This document shows positions 5,001-31,796 of a stretch of 64,000 nucleotides of DNA, in pieces (position 1 is the stretch's first letter; each line of letters opens with the position of its first letter). The stretch lies in IMG/VR virus record IMGVR_UViG_3300011269_000001; one strand, written 5' to 3'. Made by a program: the position numbers and the translations under genes. The notes under the pieces were generated by a model. That model saw nothing but the letters and a program-made list of their open reading frames with translations. It made no database searches and was not told where the DNA came from. The stretch comes from a virus.

Positions 5001-5001
5001 T

Positions 5002-5445
5002 TTAGTGTCCAGGCTTCAGCAAGAAGCTTGCCAACTTGTCCACCAGATTCTCGTTCTTGGTAACCAGGAATTCGATGCGTTCCCGGAGTTTTTTATTCTC
5101 TTCCAAGGAGGCTTCGTACCTGGCCTTGTAGCTGTTCCCGACCTTTGCTTTGATGGGGCGATTGGGAATCCGATATGCCGTGTTCTTGGCGTTGGTCTCG
5201 GCATTGAGGACTTGGTCGCTGTCGTCCAGCCGACCAGCCTTGGCTAATTCACTCAGGGCACGGTAGATGGGCTGGGCTCGGCGCTTGCCCTCGGTGACGC
5301 TGACTAGGTCGCTGCCATAGAAGTAGACGATAACATCTTCTGCAGTCCCGCAACCGCCCATCCGATGAAGGGCCTCGTAGACGTCATCGTTGCTGACGCT
5401 GAACGGATTCTTGGTCGCGTAGGTGGTTTTCGAAGCATCGGTCAT
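5002..5445 (-). CDS. Hypothetical protein, possible winged-HTH plus coiled coil
   Basis: IYRALSELAKAGRL helix pattern and C-terminal heptads. Confidence 0.45.
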   Translation of the reverse strand: MTDASKTTYATKNPFSVSNDDVYEALHRMGGCGTAEDVIVYFYGSDLVSVTEGKRRAQPIYRALSELAKAGRLDDSDQVLNAETNAKNTAYRIPNRPIKAKVGNSYKARYEASLEENKKLRERIEFLVTKNENLVDKLASFLLKPGH

Positions 5446-5786
5446 GCTTTCCTCAATGGCTGGATGCGGTGGTCACAGTTTTGGTATGGGCTCAGACCAA
5501 TGCTGTTGATGAGAACCTTGGTAAGAACATTGCCGGTCTTGCCAAAGGTGCGTCCACCAATGGCCGGGGTCCACGTTCCCTCGGGGAGGTCTCCATCGAT
5601 ATCGATTTCAGCGTCGACACCGCCTTCGACTTTCTTCAGGGTCGCGGAACCGATTTTCTTCTGGGGGTCGAAACCCAGCGTGACCCATACTGGGCCATCT
5701 TCCAATTCCACTCCCGCGGGGTCGAAGGTTTCGCCCTGGCTGTCGGGCACTTCATCAAGGTTTAGGACTCGGACTGTGAATTTCAT
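5442..5786 (-). CDS. Hypothetical protein (weak resemblance to the HK97-type prohead protease fold)
   Basis: DSQGETF, PV..GFD...IG and SIGL..P pattern; catalytic His not evident. Confidence 0.35.
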   Translation of the reverse strand: MKFTVRVLNLDEVPDSQGETFDPAGVELEDGPVWVTLGFDPQKKIGSATLKKVEGGVDAEIDIDGDLPEGTWTPAIGGRTFGKTGNVLTKVLINSIGLSPYQNCDHRIQPLRKA

Positions 5787-6097
5787 GTGATGGGCTTCTC
5801 CCCTTTGGCGATGCGGTATCGGTCAGTCATGGCCTTGGCGTCCTTGAGGTCTTTTCCGGTGCGGCTGCGCAACATCCGGATAGCGTCGATGACCCGACCA
5901 TCGTCGACAAGCCCCCGTTCGACCTCACTGAGGGTATAATCGCAGCGGGCTACCATGGCCATGATTCGATTCCGGGCCTCGGCAAGAAAGGTCACATCTT
6001 CGGGGCTACCTTCGAACGCGGCCCAGCCCAAGGTATCGATAACCAAGTCGCGGAGCTTCAGTACCGACTCTTCGTATTTTTCTCGTGTCTCGCTCAT
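5783..6097 (-). CDS. Protein with ribosomal bL12 (L7/L12) C-terminal-like domain
   Basis: GRVIDAIRMLRSRTGKDLKDAKAMTD matches the bL12-CTD pattern K(I/V)xxIKxxRxxTGLGLKEAKxxV(D/E). Confidence 0.65.
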   Translation of the reverse strand: MSETREKYEESVLKLRDLVIDTLGWAAFEGSPEDVTFLAEARNRIMAMVARCDYTLSEVERGLVDDGRVIDAIRMLRSRTGKDLKDAKAMTDRYRIAKGEKPIT

Positions 6098-17618: not shown

Positions 17619-20600
17619 ATGGACTCGATTGCGCCCCAGCCTCAGACTCAGCCTTTGCTCGGCGGCGGAACCTTCGGAATCATGTCCGCGGAAAAGCCTC
17701 TATACCCGAGTCTGGCGCCACACGGTCACGAAGCGCTCGGCAAAATATTAAAGCGCCATGGACTTCAATTCCAGGAAACTCACGGTCGCTACCAGGAACC
17801 TGAGCGCGCGTATATCATCCACGGCATCCAACCCGACTTCCTCCGGTACCTGGGCAAGCTTTTCGGCCAGGAGTCTGTAGTCCACAGCCAAGACGGACAG
17901 CACCGACTCATTTACACGAACGGTCCCCACGAGGGCAAGTATCACCCGCAAGACGTTCAGAATCCGGTGGAGATGTTCCAAGACCACCCGGATGACTATT
18001 ATACGCACGTCCCCGGCCAAGGGTACGCCCGCATCAACTTTGATTGGAACCGACTTCATCCCCTGGTCGAGACCGGTGTCCGCAAGGATGAGTACACCAT
18101 TGAAGAAGCAGTTGCTATCCTCAGAAAGCATTTTGCTCATGCGAAGTTTCAGCCTCACCCGCACGCATACAGCTGGCATGACGGTCACACCGACCATCAC
18201 CTGGAGGTCAATGACCCGCTAGGTAAAGCCGACCCAGTGCATCCGCACATGAGCCAACCAGAACCTCCTGTGGCTCCGAAGAATTTCGAGAACGAGCAGG
18301 CCATGGCCCCGGGCGGCGCGACCTACCATCAGTTCGCGGCCCCATACGGTCAGGTGACTCCGGCTCAGCAGACCAATCTCCGACACTACCGATATGAAGG
18401 CAAGCTCCCGCAGATTGAAGACCTAGTCAAGCGCCACGGCTACCAGACCTACTATGCCGGCGGCCGGTACGGGAAACCGGACCTTGCCAGGAAGAATTAT
18501 AACACCGGGCACCTGATGGTTTATGACCCGACTCCGGGTAGTGGTGGCGACTTCAAAGACGAAGAGTACAACCGCGGTTGGCGACAGATTCACGAACTCA
18601 GTCACGCTCTGACCTATCCCGAATTAAATAAAATCTACGGCGAGGGTCGACGCATCGGCAAGCTCGGTACCCACCGAAACCTCCGGGAAGCTCTCCGGGC
18701 CGTGCACTGGGAATGGTTGGCGGCTCACAAGCAGCGAGAACTCAGTAACCAACTCGGGGTCCCGATGAGTGACGAGGACTTCCACCGGGAGCTGAATACG
18801 GTCATGCACGATGCCGCGCATCGGGCCGTGACGGGACAATTCACCGAACCCGGGGGCGAAGGCTTTACACCCCACAGCCACAAGATTCCCTTGGCTACGG
18901 CGTTGGACATGGTCCGCGACCACGCTGTCCGTCTTGGGCTCAAGGGCATGGAAGACACGCTGAAGAAGCCGCTGCTTCGAAGCGAGCAGAACACAATCTT
19001 AAAGAGTAACGAGGAGACTGCTGTGGCCGATGAGAAAACCTTTAGTCCCGAGGAAGTGAGAAATATTCTTCTCGGCTTCACTCAAGAACGCATCGCAAAG
19101 ATGGAACAGTCTCTCGTCGACCTCCGACAGCGAGAACTCAAGAAGGCTGTCCCCCCGCAGAGTAGAACCCCGGGTCAGACCGCTGTCAGTTCCGGCATTG
19201 ATGATATTCCCCCTGGCGCTCTTGAAGCAGCCGGCAGAAAGTCCGAGCTGGAGAAAGTGACTCCCCCGGGTCGCGAGGAACAAGTCCGGAAACTGAAGCA
19301 AAAGCCCGGTATCGACAATCCCTGGGCGGTGGCTTGGTCTTCGTACAACAAAGACAAGAAAAAGGCTGAATACTCTTCAGAGGAGTATCACAAAGATGAA
19401 GTCAGTGTCAGTGTCAGCGAGTCCTCGGGCGAGAGCCCTGAGATTCGTGTCCGCACCAAGAAGACTGCTCAGACCGATACTCATACCGGCCAGATGCAGG
19501 CTGAGGCTATTTCTCTGGCTGAGAAAGAACCCCGGGACAGGAAAGCGTATCTGAAAAGCATTGCTCATTCCGTGAGAACTCACTACGCCACCGGCGCTGG
19601 ACCTAAGCGTCTGCAGAGCCAACATTCCATCACCCCGCGTGAGTTTCATGAGATTCTTTCCGGGACACATACTCAGAAAGCAGAAGCCGGCCCGAGTCCT
19701 CATGAGTCCATGGGGGCTGAGACCGGTTCTGGGACTCTGGCGGCTAGCGAAAAGTCTGTTGGCGAGCCGATGAAGAAAAACATCACCGGACCGGCGAGCC
19801 CAATCACCAGCACCGCGGCATCACTGGAACCAGGCGGAGCCACGGGGCCATTCCTGGCCATGGCTGAAAAAGGACCGAGCAGCCCAGAAGAGCATAAGCT
19901 TCGAATCGCCCGGCAGACCGGCAAGATGCCCAAGGAGATGGTAGGTGTCATGGGCGGCCCGTCTAAAGAACAAGCCGCACGAACTATTGCTGAGGATAAA
20001 GCAAAGCGGGCAAAGGAAGCCAAGAAAACTGAACTCCAAGGTTGGAAGGGCCACGACAAGCACAACGAGGTCGACAAAGAAGGTGTCCTGCCCAAAGACG
20101 CGGAGCCCAGGCTCTACCAGCGCGATACCGCAACTGGCAGTGGCGGGAAAATTATCGACAACCGGAAGAATGTCGGCAAGACTGAACCCAAGGCCGAAAA
20201 GCCAAACATGCCCAGAGATTACACCGCGGCAGGCGTTATCAATGCCCGCGGGGCACAAAAAGCCGAACCCCCGATGGCTAAGCCACCGAGTGGTAAAAAT
20301 CCAGCTACTAACATTTCGGCCAGTAAACCTGCGGCCCCAAAGGCTGGGGGAATGCCGGCTGGTGGCGGTGGAATAAAGACCGGGGGAATGCGCATGCCCG
20401 GGCTTAGAGTCAACACCGGTGGCGTGAATATCGGTGGCCCGATGGCCATGAAGTCCGAAGCGGAAATGAAGAAGTTCATCGGTGGTATGTCCGGTAGTTC
20501 AGGCGTCAGTAGTCCTCGTCTCTTTTCTCGGCCGAACAAGCCCTTCAGGCAAGGCGTTGGCCCGATGCAACCGACTGCGACCCAACCGGCTCCGGCTCCA

Positions 20601-21059
20601 GGTGCTGTACAGAAGGGTGATTTCGGTCTCGACCCAACAGGTCGTCCGGCAACTCTTCCTCCACGTGAGGCTCCGGCACAGAGACCGACTCGTCCTGCTT
20701 CTGAATTCAAACTTCCCCCGAAGCAAACATATACTACTCCTCCGGCTCTTCAAAGAAAGCCCCCGGTCCAAAAGGCCCTGGCAGCTGGGGCTGGCGGGGG
20801 CGCTGCACCCAGCGCTCAAACCGGCATGAGGCCAGCCGGTCAAGTAAGTCAGAGCAGTCGGCAAATCCTGAAGCATGGTGAGATGCCGGCTCATAAACCA
20901 GGAATCTTCGGCCGGATGAAAGACCGTCACCTGGCTCAGCCACCTGAGGATTTGAGTCACCTTAACGCACCGCCTCCGGCCAATGCACCACGAATTACAA
21001 GTCGTGCCCGGGCTGTCGGAGCAATACCTGCCGTTCAGAGTCCGGTGAAAGCGCCTTAA
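17619..21059 (+). CDS. Large putative head-internal protein: DUF3293-like N-terminus, HExxH domain, low-complexity C-terminal half
   Basis: FGIMSAE...GRYQEPERAY...FGQESV; IHELSHAL zincin motif; many K-[AS] motifs; internal CAATCTT, GAGGAG and in-frame GTG at 19023. Confidence 0.6.
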   Translation: MDSIAPQPQTQPLLGGGTFGIMSAEKPLYPSLAPHGHEALGKILKRHGLQFQETHGRYQEPERAYIIHGIQPDFLRYLGKLFGQESVVHSQDGQHRLIYTNGPHEGKYHPQDVQNPVEMFQDHPDDYYTHVPGQGYARINFDWNRLHPLVETGVRKDEYTIEEAVAILRKHFAHAKFQPHPHAYSWHDGHTDHHLEVNDPLGKADPVHPHMSQPEPPVAPKNFENEQAMAPGGATYHQFAAPYGQVTPAQQTNLRHYRYEGKLPQIEDLVKRHGYQTYYAGGRYGKPDLARKNYNTGHLMVYDPTPGSGGDFKDEEYNRGWRQIHELSHALTYPELNKIYGEGRRIGKLGTHRNLREALRAVHWEWLAAHKQRELSNQLGVPMSDEDFHRELNTVMHDAAHRAVTGQFTEPGGEGFTPHSHKIPLATALDMVRDHAVRLGLKGMEDTLKKPLLRSEQNTILKSNEETAVADEKTFSPEEVRNILLGFTQERIAKMEQSLVDLRQRELKKAVPPQSRTPGQTAVSSGIDDIPPGALEAAGRKSELEKVTPPGREEQVRKLKQKPGIDNPWAVAWSSYNKDKKKAEYSSEEYHKDEVSVSVSESSGESPEIRVRTKKTAQTDTHTGQMQAEAISLAEKEPRDRKAYLKSIAHSVRTHYATGAGPKRLQSQHSITPREFHEILSGTHTQKAEAGPSPHESMGAETGSGTLAASEKSVGEPMKKNITGPASPITSTAASLEPGGATGPFLAMAEKGPSSPEEHKLRIARQTGKMPKEMVGVMGGPSKEQAARTIAEDKAKRAKEAKKTELQGWKGHDKHNEVDKEGVLPKDAEPRLYQRDTATGSGGKIIDNRKNVGKTEPKAEKPNMPRDYTAAGVINARGAQKAEPPMAKPPSGKNPATNISASKPAAPKAGGMPAGGGGIKTGGMRMPGLRVNTGGVNIGGPMAMKSEAEMKKFIGGMSGSSGVSSPRLFSRPNKPFRQGVGPMQPTATQPAPAPGAVQKGDFGLDPTGRPATLPPREAPAQRPTRPASEFKLPPKQTYTTPPALQRKPPVQKALAAGAGGGAAPSAQTGMRPAGQVSQSSRQILKHGEMPAHKPGIFGRMKDRHLAQPPEDLSHLNAPPPANAPRITSRARAVGAIPAVQSPVKAP

Positions 21060-21088: not shown

Positions 21089-23677
21089 ATGGCACAAAGC
21101 TTTATTACAGACCAAGGCACCCTGATAATCCCAGGCGGTTATCCGTCTATTCGAGTTCAGACCGCGGCCAGTGGTCTTGCGACCTCCGGCGTCATCATGC
21201 TCGTCGGCGAAGCTGACCAAGGCCCGGACTTTACGCTTGAAACAGACCTGGAGACAACCTCCGCCTTCGGTCCTGACCAGCTGTCCTCAGTGGTGGCGAA
21301 GTACAAGAGCGGCAACTTGGTTGATGGATTCCGTGCCGCTGCTCAGGCCTCGAACGACCCGCAGATTACCGGTGCTCCGTCCAGAATCATCCTCGTCAAG
21401 ACGAACCCCAGTACCAAAGCCAGTGCCACGGCCCTGACCTGGGGTGCGTTGACTTGGACCCTGGCTGACCGTAGCTTCGGCAAGCTCGGGAACCTCATCA
21501 GCTTTACTGTCACCGCGGCTACTTCCGAAGTTGTTCCCACGACCGGTTCCTTTACCTGGATTCCGAACGCCGGGACTACGGCATACAATGTCCGTATCAA
21601 CGGCGGTGCTGCACTGACCAGCGGTAACTTGGCTGCGAATACTTCTCCTGCTGCCTTCGTGGCGGCAATCGGTGGTCTTGCCGGTATCACGGCTATCGGC
21701 GGTGCTGACAGAGGCATTCTCGCAGCTGCTGCCGGAACCCTGGCAGTTGTAGCCAACCCCGGCGGTGCCGGTGTCACGGTTGTCACCGTCACCCGGAGCA
21801 TCAACTTCGACGTAATCCCGACGGCCGGCGATACAATGATTATCCCCCTCGGCTCTGTAATCGCCGGGGCCGGTAGCGCAAACGTCGGTGCATACGTTGT
21901 CACGGCTGCAACGGCAACGGTCATCACCGCACAAAAACTCAGTGACGCCGGTGCTGCGGCCCCGGTTCCTGGAACCATTACCAATCCCGTCAACGTGGCT
22001 GCGGCTGCTGTCGTGGCTACGACAGATGTTCAAGCCAAGGCTCCGGTTACGGTCAGCCTCGCGGCTGCAAATCCTGTCGACGGTATCGGCAAGTCTCTGG
22101 AAATCAGCGAACTGACGACCGGCACGGACCTGCTCAGTCGCAGCACCTTCGCTCTCGGCGTACTGCCTGTGACCTGGGTCAGTAAGGCCCTCAGCCCCCA
22201 GAACCTGGTCTCTGCGACCGAATACCGGGCTACTTATACCGGCAGCCGTCAGGTCGACAACGTCCTTGAGACCTTGACTGCGGGCGGCGAAATTGCCTTG
22301 CTGATGAGCTATAAGGGCACGACCGCCACTGTCACCATTACTGCCACAACCTTCAGCACCACGGTCACCGGCGGCACCGGTGCCGGCTTCAGTATCAACC
22401 TCAGGGATTACCCGACCATCAACGACCTGGTGAAGTTCATCAACGCCCAGACCGGTTATACGGCAGCAGTCGGTACCGCGGTCCTCGGACAGATTGTCCT
22501 CACGACCCCGGGTGCGAACATCGGCCAAGCTGCTCTGACGGCTCTCGACCAGGGTACCTTCGGCATCTGCTCGACCCAGGGTGTTCAAAACGGCCGCATC
22601 AAGATTGACAGCTTCCGGTTCTTCAACGCCATCAACAACAACAGCGTCCTACTGCAGACCGGCACGGGTCTCTTCCCGACGCAGGCGACTGCCGGCGTTC
22701 CTCAGCCCACGGCCCTGACCTTCTTGGCCGGTGGAGCCAAGGGTGGAACCACGGCCGTGAACTACAACGCGGCAATCGACGCCCTCCAGAAGGCCCGCGG
22801 AAACTTCGTCGTCCCCCTCATCAGCCGTGACGCGACACTGGATATTGCCGATGGTCTGACGGAAACGACCAGCACCTATACTATCGACGCGGCTAACGCG
22901 TATACGAATACTCACTGTCTGACAATGTCCACGCTGAAACGGCGTCGGAACCGTCAATGCTTCCTCAGCAAGGAAGATACGTTCCTGAACCAGAAGCTCG
23001 CGGCGGCAAACATCGCCAGCTTCCGGGCTGCGATGTGCTTCCAGGACCCGAAGGTCGTGGCAGCCAGCACCGGCAATATCACTCAGTTCCAGCCCTGGAT
23101 TACGGCCTGCGTTGCAGCCGGCATGCAAGCCGCTGGATTCCGTCTCGCCATCGTCAACAAACAGTTGAACATCTCCGGACTCGTGAACCGTGCCGGCGAC
23201 TTCAACGACAAAGACGACACCGCGATGGAAGACGCTCTGAACAACGGTCTGCTTCCTGCCCGTCGTGCCGTTACCGGTGGATTTACTTGGGTCAGCGACC
23301 AGACGACTTACGGTAAGGACAACAACTTCGTCTTCAATAGCATCCAGGCCGTGTATACGGCTGACGTCATCGCCCTGACCACTGCTCAACAGATGGAAGC
23401 CCAGATTGTCGGCCAGTCGGTCGCTGATATCAGCGCCCCGATTGCACTGTCTATGCTGGAAGCCATCATGGGGAACTTCCTCCGGCTCAAGCTCATTGCC
23501 CCCAGCGATGATGCCCCGAAGGGTTTCAAGAACGCAGCCGTGGCCATCATCGGCGGCAAGGCTCTCCGTGTGGACGTGGAAATCAAGCTCGCGACGGCAA
23601 TCTACTTCGTGCCTATCAGCTTCCTGGTCAGTCCAGTGAATCAATCGGCCGGCTCCAGCAGCGGACCTACGAGATAA
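21089..23677 (+). CDS. Tail sheath protein
   Basis: N-terminal IIPGGYPSI...LVGEADQGP; C-terminal sheath domain (WVSDQTTY...NSIQ...AIYFVPI); LAGGAKG motif; directly upstream of the tube gene. Confidence 0.9.
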   Translation: MAQSFITDQGTLIIPGGYPSIRVQTAASGLATSGVIMLVGEADQGPDFTLETDLETTSAFGPDQLSSVVAKYKSGNLVDGFRAAAQASNDPQITGAPSRIILVKTNPSTKASATALTWGALTWTLADRSFGKLGNLISFTVTAATSEVVPTTGSFTWIPNAGTTAYNVRINGGAALTSGNLAANTSPAAFVAAIGGLAGITAIGGADRGILAAAAGTLAVVANPGGAGVTVVTVTRSINFDVIPTAGDTMIIPLGSVIAGAGSANVGAYVVTAATATVITAQKLSDAGAAAPVPGTITNPVNVAAAAVVATTDVQAKAPVTVSLAAANPVDGIGKSLEISELTTGTDLLSRSTFALGVLPVTWVSKALSPQNLVSATEYRATYTGSRQVDNVLETLTAGGEIALLMSYKGTTATVTITATTFSTTVTGGTGAGFSINLRDYPTINDLVKFINAQTGYTAAVGTAVLGQIVLTTPGANIGQAALTALDQGTFGICSTQGVQNGRIKIDSFRFFNAINNNSVLLQTGTGLFPTQATAGVPQPTALTFLAGGAKGGTTAVNYNAAIDALQKARGNFVVPLISRDATLDIADGLTETTSTYTIDAANAYTNTHCLTMSTLKRRRNRQCFLSKEDTFLNQKLAAANIASFRAAMCFQDPKVVAASTGNITQFQPWITACVAAGMQAAGFRLAIVNKQLNISGLVNRAGDFNDKDDTAMEDALNNGLLPARRAVTGGFTWVSDQTTYGKDNNFVFNSIQAVYTADVIALTTAQQMEAQIVGQSVADISAPIALSMLEAIMGNFLRLKLIAPSDDAPKGFKNAAVAIIGGKALRVDVEIKLATAIYFVPISFLVSPVNQSAGSSSGPTR

Positions 23678-23695: not shown

Positions 23696-24169
23696 ATGGC
23701 TCCACCGAAAGTCCTACATGGTGCCCGCGCACAGCTGATGATTGTCGACCCGAATACCGGGGACAGCAAAGTCGTGGGCATCTTCAACAACGTCTCGTAC
23801 AGTCTCATCTACGACGCGCAGCCAGTTTTTATCCTCGGTCGCTTCAGCGCCGCGGAAATTGGTTACACGGCGATGGAACCGATTCAAGTCACGGCCACAG
23901 GCTGGAGAGTTGTGAATGCCGGCCCGCATCGGGTCGCGAAAGTCCCCCGGCTACAAGACCTCATCCGCCACGAGTACTGCGAATTGGCTCTCTTTGACCG
24001 CCAGACGAACCAACGCGTGGCCAAGATTCACGGCCTCCGACCGACTGGGTATTCAACGACGGTCACGTCCCGTCAGTTGGAAGAGATTACCGTTACATGG
24101 ATGGGTCTGTTACTTGACGACGAGGACACGGACAACGTCGAGGGCACCGGCGCAAGCGACTTACCGTAA
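23696..24169 (+). CDS. Tail tube protein
   Basis: 157 aa beta-rich ORF immediately after the sheath (VGIFNNVSY...PVFILGRFSAAEI). Confidence 0.8.
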   Translation: MAPPKVLHGARAQLMIVDPNTGDSKVVGIFNNVSYSLIYDAQPVFILGRFSAAEIGYTAMEPIQVTATGWRVVNAGPHRVAKVPRLQDLIRHEYCELALFDRQTNQRVAKIHGLRPTGYSTTVTSRQLEEITVTWMGLLLDDEDTDNVEGTGASDLP

Positions 24170-24173
24170 AATT

Positions 24174-24213
24174 AAGAGAAAGGCATTCAAATAGTCTTGA
24201 ATGCCTTTCTCTT
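24174..24213. terminator. Probably bidirectional intrinsic terminator
   Basis: Perfect 17-bp inverted repeat AAGAGAAAGGCATTCAA/TTGAATGCCTTTCTCTT with 6-nt loop, between the convergent tube gene and repeat array. Confidence 0.85.
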
Positions 24214-24215
24214 TT

Positions 24216-24478
24216 ACCATGCTAAGTCCGGGCCACGCCGGGCCGCTCCTCACCGAACCCTGCTCCGCCTAGCCTGCTTTGATGTGCTTCGCCTTGCTTT
24301 GCCCTACCAAGCCAGGCCGCGCCTTGCCTTGCCTGCTTTGATTTGCCCTGCTCAGCCTAGCCTAGCTGCTCCTAGCCGGGCCAAGCCTGCTTTGCTAGTC
24401 CTTGCCCTGCCTGCTTTGTCATTGCTCTGCTCGACCACGCCATGCCTTACCCGACCGCGCCACGCCCGGCCTGCTTTG
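24216..24478 (-). repeat. Non-CRISPR putative guide-RNA array: 5 units of CAAAGCAGGC plus (NN-GGY/AGC/GGA)n
   Basis: GCCTGCTTTG on + at 24272, 24331, 24385, 24409 and 24469; strict 5-nt periodicity between them. Confidence 0.85.
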
Positions 24479-24482
24479 AAAA

Positions 24483-24932
24483 CTACTTTTGTGACTTCCG
24501 AGACTGCAACGACTTCCGTGCCTTTGCTACTTCCTGTCGAATTGCGGCAAGTTCCTTCAGAGTCTTATACTTCTCACCAGCTCGTTCGTATTCCTCCAAT
24601 GCTTGAGCCAGGAATGCCGCCCGTTTCTGCGCGTTGCTCAAGACGCTAACAAGTGTGACGTATCCTTCCTTTCCACGGGAGACGATTGGTGATACATAGG
24701 TTTGTTCTTCTCTGCCGTCAGGGTAGGTGACCCGAACTTCCGTGATGATTTCTCGGGCCTGCCAGAGTCTGTACTCGCGACCGGCAACAGTATCATCCCA
24801 CTCGAATCTGGAGTGCAGGGCACTGTCAGGATGACTTTCTGCCCAATCCACGACAACCTCGGGCTTGAGGCCACCATGTTTTTCGTAGAGCTTAGATAGC
24901 TCATCTACAATGGCTTGCGATTTCTTGTTCAT
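24483..24932 (-). CDS. Accessory protein of the RAMP/array cassette (all-helical, unknown function)
   Basis: GAGGAG RBS, ATGA overlap with the RAMP-like gene; LKPEVVVDWA..PDSALHSRFEWDDTVAGREYRLWQAREII motif. Confidence 0.75.
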   Translation of the reverse strand: MNKKSQAIVDELSKLYEKHGGLKPEVVVDWAESHPDSALHSRFEWDDTVAGREYRLWQAREIITEVRVTYPDGREEQTYVSPIVSRGKEGYVTLVSVLSNAQKRAAFLAQALEEYERAGEKYKTLKELAAIRQEVAKARKSLQSRKSQK

Positions 24933-25582
24933 TTTGTCTCCTCTGTTTTTGCGATTCTGAAAGTGCCCCAACCCATGCCGGCTGAGTCTGTGGAATCGGG
25001 ACGGCCGGCGCCGATACCGACCTGCATACCCATTCGTGCAAGTAGATTTGTCACGTCGGTCAAAGTGAATTGGTCCGCGTCATAACAAATCTTCGGATTT
25101 GCTTCCCAGCCCTCGGTCCACATGGGTCTTGGTCTGATGTCAGCAACACCCGTCTCATTACGAACGGCGAAGTCTGTGCGGATTGGCTCGCCTTTAGTAA
25201 TCTTGACCAGGGGTTGAATCCCGAACCGGTCTCGTTCGTAGCCATCAGGCACCACGAAGATACTGAGCTTGGCGAGAGTCATTTTGAAATTCACTAGCCG
25301 ACAGGTAGAAATCAGCCCTCCCCGAAATGCGCTGGCCGGAATTCCTGCCCAGCCTTCTTCAGAGAAGTGGGTTGCTTCTTTGAAGCAAAGGTCGAAATCT
25401 TTTGCCTCTCTTTTGCCCTTCTTGGCTGTACTGCCTGCCGCTTGAGTTTTGGCCATACCTTCTAGGGCCCGTTGAGAAAACTTGTTCTGAACCATCGGGG
25501 CGGTACCGATGATTTTGAACGCTGCGGTTAACAGATTGGGAGGGGTAATCGCAACGGCTTCGCTCTTGTTTTTGAATGCCAT
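24929..25582 (-). CDS. Stand-alone Cas7/RAMP-superfamily-like protein
   Basis: KIIGTAPMV first strand, GIPASAFRGGL (RAMP IP.S..KG..), thumb-like region VRNETGVADIRPRP, C-terminal G-rich loop GIGAGRP...GMGWGTF. Confidence 0.8.
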   Translation of the reverse strand: MAFKNKSEAVAITPPNLLTAAFKIIGTAPMVQNKFSQRALEGMAKTQAAGSTAKKGKREAKDFDLCFKEATHFSEEGWAGIPASAFRGGLISTCRLVNFKMTLAKLSIFVVPDGYERDRFGIQPLVKITKGEPIRTDFAVRNETGVADIRPRPMWTEGWEANPKICYDADQFTLTDVTNLLARMGMQVGIGAGRPDSTDSAGMGWGTFRIAKTEETK

Positions 25583-25608: not shown

Positions 25609-25647
25609 ATACTAACACAGTCCCAAACGGAAATCAACTGTGATTTC
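25609..25647 (-). promoter_or_regulatory. Sigma70-like promoter of the RAMP cassette with overlapping palindrome
   Basis: TTGATT-17 nt-TAGTAT with TG extension; GAAATCA-ACTG-TGATTTC inverted repeat (25630-25647) covers the -35. Confidence 0.6.
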
Positions 25648-27770: not shown

Positions 27771-29051
27771 CTACCCTTTGACGCACAAAACTCCCTTTAG
27801 CGTGTGGACCACCTCCACCAGGTCTTTCTGGGCTTCCATGACGGCGTCGATGGGCTTATACGCGCCCGGGGTCTCGTCCAGGACGTCAACATCCTTCCGG
27901 CATTCGACCCCGGCAGTGGCCTGGGCGTGGTCTTCGAGACTAAAAGTCTTCCGGGCCTGGGTCCGGGACATGATTCTCCCGGCTCCGTGGCTGCAGCTCT
28001 GGAAGGACTCCTTGTTACCCAGGCCCCGGACGATGTAGCTTCTGGAACCCATGGACCCGGGAATGATACCCCAATCACCGACGCGAGCCCTCACAGCTCC
28101 CTTGCGTGTCACTAATACATTCTCCCCAAAATGGTGTTCGCGAGTCACATAGTTGTGATGGCAATTGACGAACATCGGCCCGACACCAGCAGCCAGGTCC
28201 AGGCCATTGTAGACTCTGTGCACCCGGTCCGGATATTTTTCCGCGAAGACGTTCACCACTGCCATGGCCATGATGATGCGGTTCGAGGACGCGTAGTCCT
28301 GAGCCCAGGTCACGGCCTCCCAATAGTCCTGAAAGTGCTCGGTATCCTCCGGCAGGTAAGCCAGGTCCTGGTCCGGCAGATTGACGAACCACCGGCGCAT
28401 GTCTTCCCGGGCCAGGTTGATGAAATAGGTGCCGATTTTGTTTCCCGGCCCGCGGCTTCCGGAGTGAAGCATTATCCAGACATTCTGCTCTTCGTCCAGA
28501 CAGACCTCGATGAAGTGGTTCCCGGTGCCGAGGGTGCCCAGGTGATTGTCGGCACGGCCGTGCAAAATCTGGGGATGTTTGGTAACGATGTCGTGGTACC
28601 GGAGAACCAGAGGCCCGTCCCAGAAACCATTCAGAATCAACTTCGGGACACTGTGCCAGGCCCCGCGGTCGCCGTCCTGGCCGTTGCTTGTCCGCCCATG
28701 CGGGACCCGGCGCTCAATCTCCTGACGTATTCCAGCTAGACTGTCCGGGAGGTCTGAGGCCTTCAGTGGCAGCTGAATCGCCATCATCCCGCAGCCAATG
28801 TCCACGCCCACGGCCGCGGGAATGACAGCACCACGGGTGGCGATAACCGTACCCACGGTTGAACCACGACCCGAGTGCACGTCCGGCATCACAGCCAGGT
28901 GCCGGTGGATGAACGGCATCGAAGCCAACTTCCGGAGCTGTTCCTGGGCCTCGGCTTCGAACAGAACACCCCGGGTCCAGTGCTTGACCGGGACCTTCAT
29001 CGCCGGCTGTGTTGCCGTTATCTGGAAGGCGTCGAAATTGGCTTCGGTCAT
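27771..29051 (-). CDS. rtcB: RtcB RNA ligase (3'-phosphate/5'-OH)
   Basis: AVMPDVHSG, VGVDIGCGM, LGTLGTGNHFIE, HSGSRG, CHHNY, TRKGA, IPGSMG, SHGAGR, DETPGAYK. Confidence 0.96.
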   Translation of the reverse strand: MTEANFDAFQITATQPAMKVPVKHWTRGVLFEAEAQEQLRKLASMPFIHRHLAVMPDVHSGRGSTVGTVIATRGAVIPAAVGVDIGCGMMAIQLPLKASDLPDSLAGIRQEIERRVPHGRTSNGQDGDRGAWHSVPKLILNGFWDGPLVLRYHDIVTKHPQILHGRADNHLGTLGTGNHFIEVCLDEEQNVWIMLHSGSRGPGNKIGTYFINLAREDMRRWFVNLPDQDLAYLPEDTEHFQDYWEAVTWAQDYASSNRIIMAMAVVNVFAEKYPDRVHRVYNGLDLAAGVGPMFVNCHHNYVTREHHFGENVLVTRKGAVRARVGDWGIIPGSMGSRSYIVRGLGNKESFQSCSHGAGRIMSRTQARKTFSLEDHAQATAGVECRKDVDVLDETPGAYKPIDAVMEAQKDLVEVVHTLKGVLCVKG

Positions 29052-29208
29052 GGCCCGAACCAATTTTTTGGAAGTAGAGCCACCACTCCACAGAGAATCA
29101 AGACGAATACGAAGAATCCGCCGAGAATTACGGCCTCTTCAATCTTTTCCTCGCGGGTCAGCTCTTTTTGAGGCAGGTTCGGGTCGGGATTCGGGCCGTT
29201 GAAGTCCA

Positions 29209-29858: not shown

Positions 29859-31796
29859 TCATGATGCCTTCCTTATCTTAAGCTGCTTCGCCTTACCGGT
29901 CAACCGCTCAATCAGGTCATTCAGGACCTGGACCGTCTCTTCAACCTTGTTGCCGTCCGAGGCCGCGTCCACGACCACGGCCTTGGCGGCAATCAGTTCC
30001 GCGATGTCCATGTCGATGGTCTCGGGCGCCAGCAGCTTCCACACGTTTACGCTCTGCTTCTGTCCGATGCGGTGAACCCGGTCTTCAGCCTGTTGCATAT
30101 CCGCCGGATTCCAGCCCTGCTCCACGAAGGCGACGTTGCTGGCTGCCGTCAGCGTGATTCCGACTCCGCCAGCCTTGAGGCTGCAGACGATGAGCCGGCA
30201 TGTGGGGTCATTCTGGAACCGGTCGACGTTGTTCTGTCGAACTTCCACGTCGTCATCGCCGCGGACCGAGGCACAGCCTGGGAAGGTCTTGACCAGAAGT
30301 TCTTGGATGTCCCGGTGATGGGCAAAGAGGACCAACTTCTCCCCGGACTCCAGGAAGTTCTCGACCCACTCCCGGACGCCTTCAATCTTGCCCCGGGCTG
30401 CTAACTGTTTCAGGGTCTCGATTTTGACCAGGTGCTCAGCCCGGACCGCAGCTGTCACATTGCCACCGGTCCTGGCGAGGTAGGCGATGAGATTGGCCTC
30501 GGCGCTGAGGTACTCGCTGAGATTGCTGAGCTGAATCTCGACTGTGGTCTTTACCTTGGCGGGAAGCTCTGGGAGAACATCCTTCTTCAGCCGGCGGATG
30601 TAGCAGCTGGCCCGGCAGTTGCGGTTCAGAACATCCAGGTCCCGGGGCTCGCCAAATTCCGTCCCGAAGCCGTTCTTGACCGCGTGAGCGTGGTGGTACC
30701 AGAGCTGATTGAAGCCACCGACATCCTCTAGGCGACCGATGATGTCCAGGGGGCTGATAATTTCCGCCGGCCGATTCAGGAACGGGGTGCCGGTGAGAAT
30801 CATCCGGATTCGGACGTTGCGGGCAAGCTTCTTGCTGGCGACCGTCCGCTTGGCCCGGTAGTTCTTGAGCAGGTGGCCCTCGTCGAAGATGACGGCGGCA
30901 GGATTCATCGCCACCAGGCGCCCCAGGTGCTCGCCGCGAATCAGGGCATCGTAGTGGATGATGGTCACGTCCGCGTTGTAGCTCCCGGGCTCGCCGTTCA
31001 GGACTTCAATGCTCTTGCCGGGCAACCACTTCGAGGTCTCGCGTGCCCAATTCAGCTTGAGGCTCTTCGGGCAGACGATGACGGCCGGGTAGCTGTTGGT
31101 GTCGGCGATGGTCGCCAGGGCTTGAACCGTCTTCCCGAGGCCCATCTCGTCAGCGATGATGACTCGCTCGTGCCGGGAAGCGTAGGCGACGCCAGCCTTC
31201 TGGAAGGGTCGAAGCTCGCCACCCAGGCCCGCGACCGTATGTTCGGCCGTTGCGGCGCTGCTGGCCTTGATGACGGCCTGGGTCGACTCCAGGGACTGAG
31301 TCCAGAGGTCGATGACCTCGTCGCCGACCTCGATTTCGAAGTTCCGGCAGAGATTGTTCAGGGGCTCCACGGCGACCAGGCTGTAGGGCACGGTCCAGGA
31401 AAGGGTTTCTTTATTCCAGCGACGGCCCGGAATGCCCTTGACGGCTGCCAGAAGCTCGGCAAAGCGCTTGTCGCGGCGCTCCCAGCCCACCGTAAAAACG
31501 CCATCCTTGTAGCTGATGGTACGAACGGGCTCAGATTGGGCCGGAGGAGGGGGAGGGACGGGAATCTCGCTGTAGAGGCAGCCAGAGGCCTCCAATTGAC
31601 CCCTGTACTTGCGAATCATCCGGTGAACTGCCACCAATTGCTTCGGGGACCATTTCTCGACCGGAATCGAGGCCATTTTCCGGCCGAAACCGGTGTCCAG
31701 GCCGTTGAAGCCCATGCCGTCTTCGGACCGGGCGCCGTCGCAGACACCGGCCAGGCTCTGGACCGCGGCGTAGAGGAGAGTAGGGTCGTAACTCAT
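29859..31796 (-). CDS. SNF2-family (HARP/SMARCAL1-like) helicase/ATPase
   Basis: LRPFQ, IADEMGLGKT, DEGH, LTGTP, GGVGITLT, QAEDRVHRIGQ; HARP-like IPGRRWN..W segment. Confidence 0.93.
   Translation of the reverse strand: MSYDPTLLYAAVQSLAGVCDGARSEDGMGFNGLDTGFGRKMASIPVEKWSPKQLVAVHRMIRKYRGQLEASGCLYSEIPVPPPPPAQSEPVRTISYKDGVFTVGWERRDKRFAELLAAVKGIPGRRWNKETLSWTVPYSLVAVEPLNNLCRNFEIEVGDEVIDLWTQSLESTQAVIKASSAATAEHTVAGLGGELRPFQKAGVAYASRHERVIIADEMGLGKTVQALATIADTNSYPAVIVCPKSLKLNWARETSKWLPGKSIEVLNGEPGSYNADVTIIHYDALIRGEHLGRLVAMNPAAVIFDEGHLLKNYRAKRTVASKKLARNVRIRMILTGTPFLNRPAEIISPLDIIGRLEDVGGFNQLWYHHAHAVKNGFGTEFGEPRDLDVLNRNCRASCYIRRLKKDVLPELPAKVKTTVEIQLSNLSEYLSAEANLIAYLARTGGNVTAAVRAEHLVKIETLKQLAARGKIEGVREWVENFLESGEKLVLFAHHRDIQELLVKTFPGCASVRGDDDVEVRQNNVDRFQNDPTCRLIVCSLKAGGVGITLTAASNVAFVEQGWNPADMQQAEDRVHRIGQKQSVNVWKLLAPETIDMDIAELIAAKAVVVDAASDGNKVEETVQVLNDLIERLTGKAKQLKIRKAS

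Follow-up and report, generated by a model that had tools for sequence, protein, structure and literature searches.

The window analyzed here (the whole 64,000-nt stretch of DNA) belongs to a phage of ~165 kb, with longest assemblies of ~164.9 kb from three sources, that is marked as contractile tailed by its sheath, tube, and baseplate genes. On the plus strand, a tail sheath gene (positions 21089 to 23677; phrog_279, E = 1.2e-28) lies upstream of a tail-tube gene (23696 to 24169) encoding 157 aa and matching the Phi812 tail tube (PF26461; score, 0.98; TM, 0.88). Convergent with the tube gene, on the minus strand, are a gene with a RAMP fold that we call vipr (24929 to 25582), an accessory (vap-like) gene (24483 to 24932) coupled to it by ATGA, and a staggered array of GGY/NN pentamers (24214 to 24478) that begins 4 nt past the accessory-gene stop. 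A perfect 17-bp hairpin (24174 to 24213), formed by an inverted repeat between the tube gene and the array, is likely a bidirectional terminator; a terminator scan made no call there. Just upstream of the sheath gene, positions 17619 to 21059 encode a protein of 1146 aa that has no PHROG match and whose long C-terminal part is low in complexity and rich in Lys, Pro, and Ala. Genes for an RtcB RNA ligase (27771 to 29063) and an SNF2-type helicase (29859 to 31796) lie upstream of, and on the same strand as, the two-gene operon; nothing seen ties them to it.

The vipr product (P0001; 217 aa) was recognized from its predicted structure and PHROG membership as a stand-alone RAMP fold with a C-terminal glycine-rich loop (G-loop); Pfam and PDB sequence searches returned nothing. 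It fits the description of VIPR effectors as solo RAMP proteins of ~20 to 25 kDa built from an RRM core, a thumb, and a G-loop. All 50 structural matches listed for the model (pLDDT, 88.8) were CRISPR-Cas effector or RAMP entries, the best among them having Z = 11.0 and an rmsd of 3.6 over 152 aligned residues, and Foldseek matched the model to Csm complexes at E = 1e-5. P0001 falls in phrog_4652 (E = 6.5e-12), the same family as the Vipr of coliphage SUSP1 (E = 1.4e-96), which was picked by its position among four guide tracts and by residue numbering. Profile alignment of the two proteins with hhalign (probability, 79.8; E = 1.5e-5; 52 columns) brought the G-loops into register, and the SUSP1 thumb residue R138 and G-loop residue R179 align to R152 and R194, which are invariant in the P0001 clade. 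SUSP1 G-loop residues D177 and W178 are not conserved in that clade, where they are replaced by A/E and G, respectively. In the accessible text of the VIPR papers, D177 is the residue that reads the triplet's first G, and its replacement here may be related to a tolerance of AGC and GGA triplets. In the P0001 G-loop (25030 to 24960), an insertion that contains an invariant Trp comes after the Ala/Glu at the D177 position, in an alignment of low identity.

The accessory protein (P0002; 149 aa) is mostly helical and belongs to phrog_15946 (E = 2.4e-20), a family common to the vipr neighbors of mycobacteriophage Quico and cyanophage Cy-LDV1; a homologue is present in 25 of 27 loci of the clade. 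SUSP1 Vap1 belongs to another family (phrog_5926) and has no BLAST similarity to P0002. Fold searches with P0002 were uninformative, giving only generic coiled-coil matches and unnamed viral clusters and barely covering the N-terminal domain, and no nuclease motif or fold was found. A candidate sigma70-like promoter of the operon (TTGATT-17 nt-TAGTAT; 25609 to 25637, minus strand), picked by eye, is weak, with 8 of 12 consensus bases, and falls under the threshold of the promoter scanner. A short palindrome with AAATCA/TGATTT-like arms (25630 to 25647) overlies the putative -35 element, and arms of similar sequence, separated by a longer spacer, lie just after position 2911 of a related locus (L035), upstream of an endonuclease VII (EndoVII) promoter; the pair is possibly a shared operator, or chance. 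No cas gene, cas operon, or CRISPR direct repeats with contiguous spacers were found within 10 kb on each side.

The array comprises five units on the minus strand, which a sequence-only reading had described and which direct re-reading of the letters confirmed. Unit 1 (24411 to 24471) holds 10 pentamers, a 1-nt insertion, and junction pentamers; unit 2 (24387 to 24411) holds 5 pentamers; unit 3 (24333 to 24387) and unit 4 (24274 to 24333) hold 9 and 10 pentamers, each with 2 junction pentamers; and unit 5 (24214 to 24274) holds 10 pentamers, a 1-nt insertion, and 2 more pentamers. Counting junctions, four units therefore have 11 to 12 pentamers and one has 5. Four in-phase runs of 8 to 10 pentamers occur in the array, and the longest run in 50 shuffles of the whole window was ≤6. 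Triplets among the 42 array pentamers are few in kind (GGC, 25; AGC, 7; GGT, 6; GGA, 4), and the NN positions use 15 of the 16 possible dinucleotides. The earlier claim of a pentamer code with information in NN only agrees with the published VIPR code. The final one or two NN of units recur across units (aa, ag, and ct) and may carry little information. Predicted RNA structure in the region did not exceed that of shuffles (z = -0.28), and Rfam gave no credible match.

Five copies of a 10-nt handle (24478, 24418, 24394, 24340, and 24281, minus strand) lie in the window, all in the array, and had been taken for a constant, separate element. Unit spacings of 24, 54, and 59 all equal 5n - 1, and the spacing of 60 includes the 1-nt insertion, so the handle is better read as the end of the preceding unit. 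It is two terminal pentamers (NN = aa and ag) that share 1 nt with the first G of the next unit, a staggered junction at which successive guides overlap by 1 nt at the sequence level. Unit 2, with 5 pentamers against 9 to 16 repeats in published guides (bioRxiv 10.64898/2026.04.26.720920, accessible text), is probably too short for guide action, and we infer that it is a deletion remnant or a spacer. Related arrays had been proposed as a place to look for unit gain or loss; none was seen, as 13 other assembled loci of the same phage population carry the array of the window without any change (14 of 14 copies). A seemingly longer spacing in two of these loci (L047 and L048) was a gene-calling difference and not a change in the array.

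This architecture is that of VIPR, the recently described RNA-guided gene silencing of bacterial viruses (bioRxiv 10.64898/2026.04.26.720920; structures in bioRxiv 10.64898/2026.04.26.720927). In the accessible text of the VIPR papers, experiments established that NN is informative and that 1 nt is skipped at the wobble position (bioRxiv 10.64898/2026.04.26.720920); in SUSP1, one Vipr binds each pentamer with the triplet hidden and NN paired to double-stranded DNA, pairing skips one base, usually the wobble base, and transcription is silenced without a PAM. Guides of published staggered vrRNA arrays likewise overlap by 1 nt (fig. S18 of the first preprint, as far as its accessible parts show). 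The RAMP fold and the PHROG shared with SUSP1 Vipr, together with a two-gene locus and a GGY/NN array without adjacent cas genes, make us highly confident that the locus is a VIPR system, guide-RNA array included. By gene content it is a VIPR system outside type II, because its accessory protein is not Vap1.

Like published staggered VIPR systems, the locus is phage encoded, pairs a solo RAMP gene with one accessory gene, and carries 9- to 12-repeat GGY/NN tracts with 1-nt overlaps and a putative wobble-aligned reading that skips 1 nt; it differs in that 11 of its 42 triplets are AGC or GGA. The type II system of SUSP1 shares the Vipr PHROG and the aligned thumb and G-loop arginines but has a phrog_5926 accessory protein where this locus has phrog_15946, retains the D177 and W178 that are replaced in P0001, and ends each guide with a conserved structured 3′ tail, whereas the units here abut without tails. 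Vipr proteins of Cy-LDV1 (BK059895) and Quico (NC_028751) are 62% and 30% identical to P0001, with the same accessory family and staggered arrays, but those loci lie near repressor genes in phages of 47 to 59 kb, whereas this one follows the tube gene of a ~165-kb contractile-tailed phage. Class 1 CRISPR RAMPs (Csm3, Cmr, and Cas7) share the fold (Z up to 11) and the principle of a filament on RNA; they differ from this locus, which has predicted noncontiguous pairing and neither CRISPR repeats and spacers nor a cas operon. Pentamer runs are present in 23 of 27 clade loci, and xGCA-then-GGY junctions in these relatives are spaced 5n - 1 in 62 of 82 cases; the junction in the present array is a longer fixed motif. 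Two loci (L030 and L031, near 5001 to 5900) have Vipr and accessory homologues without a canonical pentamer run of at least 4 nearby, which suggests that the array was lost or that the repeat is noncanonical. Two others (L021 and L023, position 4781, minus strand) have, in addition to their downstream arrays, a run of pentamers that lies upstream of vipr and on the strand opposite to it.

Unit 5 spells the end of the phage's own adjacent tube gene. Read antisense with the skipped base at codon position 3, its NN1 to NN9 give Gly-Thr-Gly-Ala-Ser-Asp/Glu-Leu-Pro-stop, and its near-cognate footprint (24143 to 24168, plus strand) covers the last eight tube codons and the stop codon, on the strand opposite the array and 45 bp past it. 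The match is complete at the peptide level (9 of 9) and reaches 15 of 18 NN bases in the DNA (83% over 9 NN). It was first noticed by eye and then tested (post hoc): the peptide match was equaled by 4 of 20000 order shuffles, an expectation of 0.0035 over all 8 guide/orientation tests (P ~ 0.004). Targets spelled at gaps of 0 to 3 nt had been predicted to stand out against shuffles; in the window this held at a gap of 1 for unit 5 (equaled in 15 of 300 shuffles; P = 0.05) and not at gaps of 0, 2, or 3, which gave no target signal (136 to 299 of 300 for unit 5). The idea that a one-base gap would skip codon wobble positions is a published VIPR rule, and the sole target signal found here is at gap 1 and codon aligned. 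Among 119 other tube homologues, the best agreement with unit 5 was 6 of 9 positions, so unit 5 points at its own lineage.

The mismatches fall on two codons, Ser154 (AGC in the gene; TC in the guide) and Leu156 (TTA in the gene; CT in the guide). With AGY at 49% among Ser codons and TTR at 15% among Leu codons, a difference at both sites could arise by chance ~7% of the time; for TTA itself, the share among Leu codons of plus-strand genes is 2%. All three kin with 85 to 89% identical tubes have TCC at Ser154, as the guide expects, and one of them also has CTG at Leu156 and matches NN1 to NN7 at 14 of 14 bases. Among tube genes, a 7-NN pattern of unit 5 matched only that of the kin phage L035. 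The closest kin lacking VIPR (L040, L045, and L046) also have AGC and TTA; the two codons are thus not specific to VIPR carriers, and a simple story of self versus non-self is weakened. This suggests that kin of this type are spared by unit 5, either as escapees or through codons older than the guide. The self match of 83% lies above the published threshold of 80%, and the accessible VIPR literature yielded no data on mismatch tolerance.

Searches beyond the tube gene gave little. No tube allele matching unit 5 at 18 of 18 bases was present in the viral, metagenome, and genome collections searched; its two exact patterns were absent from viral contigs, and its exact matches elsewhere (11 in metagenomes and 4 in genomes) included no tube homologue. 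Read with the 1-nt skip, unit 1 matched nothing exactly in the viral or genome contigs, nor did unit 3 in the viral contigs. Three 18-base matches of unit 4 in viral contigs did not reach the 10th NN and were treated as chance, and the scores of unit 1 at gap 0 (16 of 20; P = 0.06) and unit 4 at gap 1 (P = 0.04 to 0.075) were at chance level over 28 tests. Peptide-level scans with units 1, 3, and 4 found nothing in the window, kin loci, or fetched proteins. None of 174 guide/orientation tests within 5 kb was significant in 27 other clade loci; the pattern of unit 5 is therefore not general over that distance.

We consider the link between unit 5 and the tube end probably real, and we put the joint reading, a VIPR system with a real link of unit 5 to the tube end, at a probability of about three in four. 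Under the mechanism that we propose, the operon would be transcribed from the minus strand, and the array would be cut at the 1-nt-overlap junctions into vrRNAs of ~55 to 60 nt, by analogy with published staggered arrays. By homology to SUSP1, one Vipr subunit would sit on each pentamer, hiding the triplet and presenting NN; the NNs would base pair with double-stranded DNA while leaving every third base unpaired, and the bound gene would be silenced. Unit 5 would be aimed at the tube 3′ end of close kin in which the same Ser is encoded by TCN and the same Leu by CTN. The phage's own AGC and TTA, which change codon positions 1 and 2 and leave the protein the same, would break 3 of 18 pairings and may confer self-immunity. 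That kin targeting with self-avoidance is the purpose of unit 5 we regard as an even bet.

The position of the module bears on what else unit 5 could do. Homology of kin to the window stops exactly at the tube stop (24169), and directly after that stop kin carry EndoVII genes (PF02945) in L040 (2490 to 3086), L046 (799 to 1395), L045, and the more distant L035 (3022 to 3798; another EndoVII), with an EndoVII remnant in L069 (~1297 to 1413). Kin with an identical tube protein have an EndoVII gene, and no VIPR, in the VIPR position, and both alleles occur together in one sample (JGI 3300009089; VIPR-bearing L006 and EndoVII-bearing L045). Extended -10 boxes of the kin EndoVII genes lie 56 and 75 nt past the tube stop. 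L040-type tubes differ from that of the window at synonymous sites only (29 to 33), with 28 such sites of the L040 tube in positions 222 to 453, and synonymous divergence of this kind is expected beside a homing endonuclease. In L035, a GIY-YIG gene is also present, between the sheath and tube genes. Tentatively, and at somewhat less than even odds, we suggest that the VIPR module sits in a homing-endonuclease slot and that one of its guides is directed at the flanking conserved gene end of sister phages, with the carrier and escapees immune through Ser/Leu swaps, possibly as an RNA-guided competition of alleles for one locus. As in intronless homing of the T4 SegF type (class defined in PMC12724721), the module lies beside a conserved gene containing the recognition site and a synonymous polymorphism would protect the carrier; the resemblance goes no further, since recognition here would be RNA guided and no nuclease was identified in the module.

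The homology break, the EndoVII genes with their -10 boxes, the synonymous divergence of the L040 tube, and the shared sample also speak for a variant in which the same VIPR system uses unit 5 to contest the slot itself, by silencing or blocking the free-standing EndoVII of kin, a putative homing endonuclease, or by spreading the VIPR module in the manner of intronless homing. This variant overlaps with kin targeting. We hold it to be unlikely, as the EndoVII core promoter is downstream of the unit 5 footprint, the EndoVII genes contain no match to units 1, 3, and 4, the accessory protein has no identified nuclease motif or fold (in uninformative fold searches), and the tube stop, the end of the late operon, is a natural module boundary anyway. 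Coincidence, with all guides aimed at unsampled elements such as satellites or prophages, draws on the post hoc nature of the observation, the DNA-level P value of only 0.05, and the lack of such a pattern for any other unit in the window. It is improbable given the peptide-level expectation over all tests and a match that keeps the reading frame of the neighboring gene, extends over its stop codon, and fits the codons used by kin.

Deliberate binding of the phage's own tube 3′ end, which could dampen transcription of late genes, insulate the two convergent operons from each other, or shield the site from an endonuclease of kin, would fit an own allele that ties for best among known tube alleles (15 of 18) and a site 45 bp from the array and above the 80% cutoff. 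It gives no reason for mismatches lying exactly at Ser and Leu codons and pointing toward the codons of kin; moreover, the VIPR papers, in their accessible parts, report no self-targets at 80%, and self-match scores fall below rival-match scores (bioRxiv 10.64898/2026.10.15.759431, accessible text). We judge self-binding to be distinctly improbable. That the array is a translated low-complexity open reading frame or a slippage repeat can be dismissed, although one plus-strand frame (24197 to 24649; antisense to the accessory gene and uncalled by gene callers in these assemblies) is open across it: all three minus-strand frames contain stops, codon selection cannot account for a 5-nt period whose phase is reset by 1 nt, the NN dinucleotides vary without constraint, arrays of this grammar adjoin Vipr homologues in 23 of 27 loci, and such arrays have been shown elsewhere, in the accessible text of bioRxiv 10.64898/2026.04.26.720920, to be protein-bound small RNAs. 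Kin targeting by a VIPR guide remains our preferred account of unit 5.

Serine, leucine, and arginine have codons that differ at positions 1 and 2. The VIPR papers argue, in their accessible parts, that targets cannot escape through synonymous changes when the wobble base is skipped. The anti-satellite VIPR of SUSP1 (Vipr and Vap1) is the subject of a preprint whose accessible text already reports guides matching rivals better than self and says that escape needs a nonsynonymous change; a word search of that text found no passage on Ser/Leu synonymous escape or on homing (bioRxiv 10.64898/2026.10.15.759431). The array grammar was likewise published in 2026 and is not a discovery of this study. 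What is new is a unit that spells the carrier's own adjacent tube end; the accessible VIPR literature showed no guide directed at a structural gene of its own carrier with six-fold Ser/Leu differences. If the kin-targeting account is true, six-fold Ser/Leu swaps are a synonymous route out of a wobble-skipping code, and the locus looks like a natural case, in which exactly such swaps separate self from target. It would also connect VIPR with a contest between sister phages over a homing-endonuclease site. The staggered, non-type-II branch, for which processing and the accessory protein are uncharacterized in the accessible VIPR papers, gains here a directly testable guide/target pair. Elsewhere in the tube gene, a four-base polymorphism at 23800 to 23803 (codons 35 and 36) among L005, L041, L045, and L046 switches Ser36 between AGT and TCG, a further six-fold Ser swap that segregates within the population, and leaves the protein unchanged.
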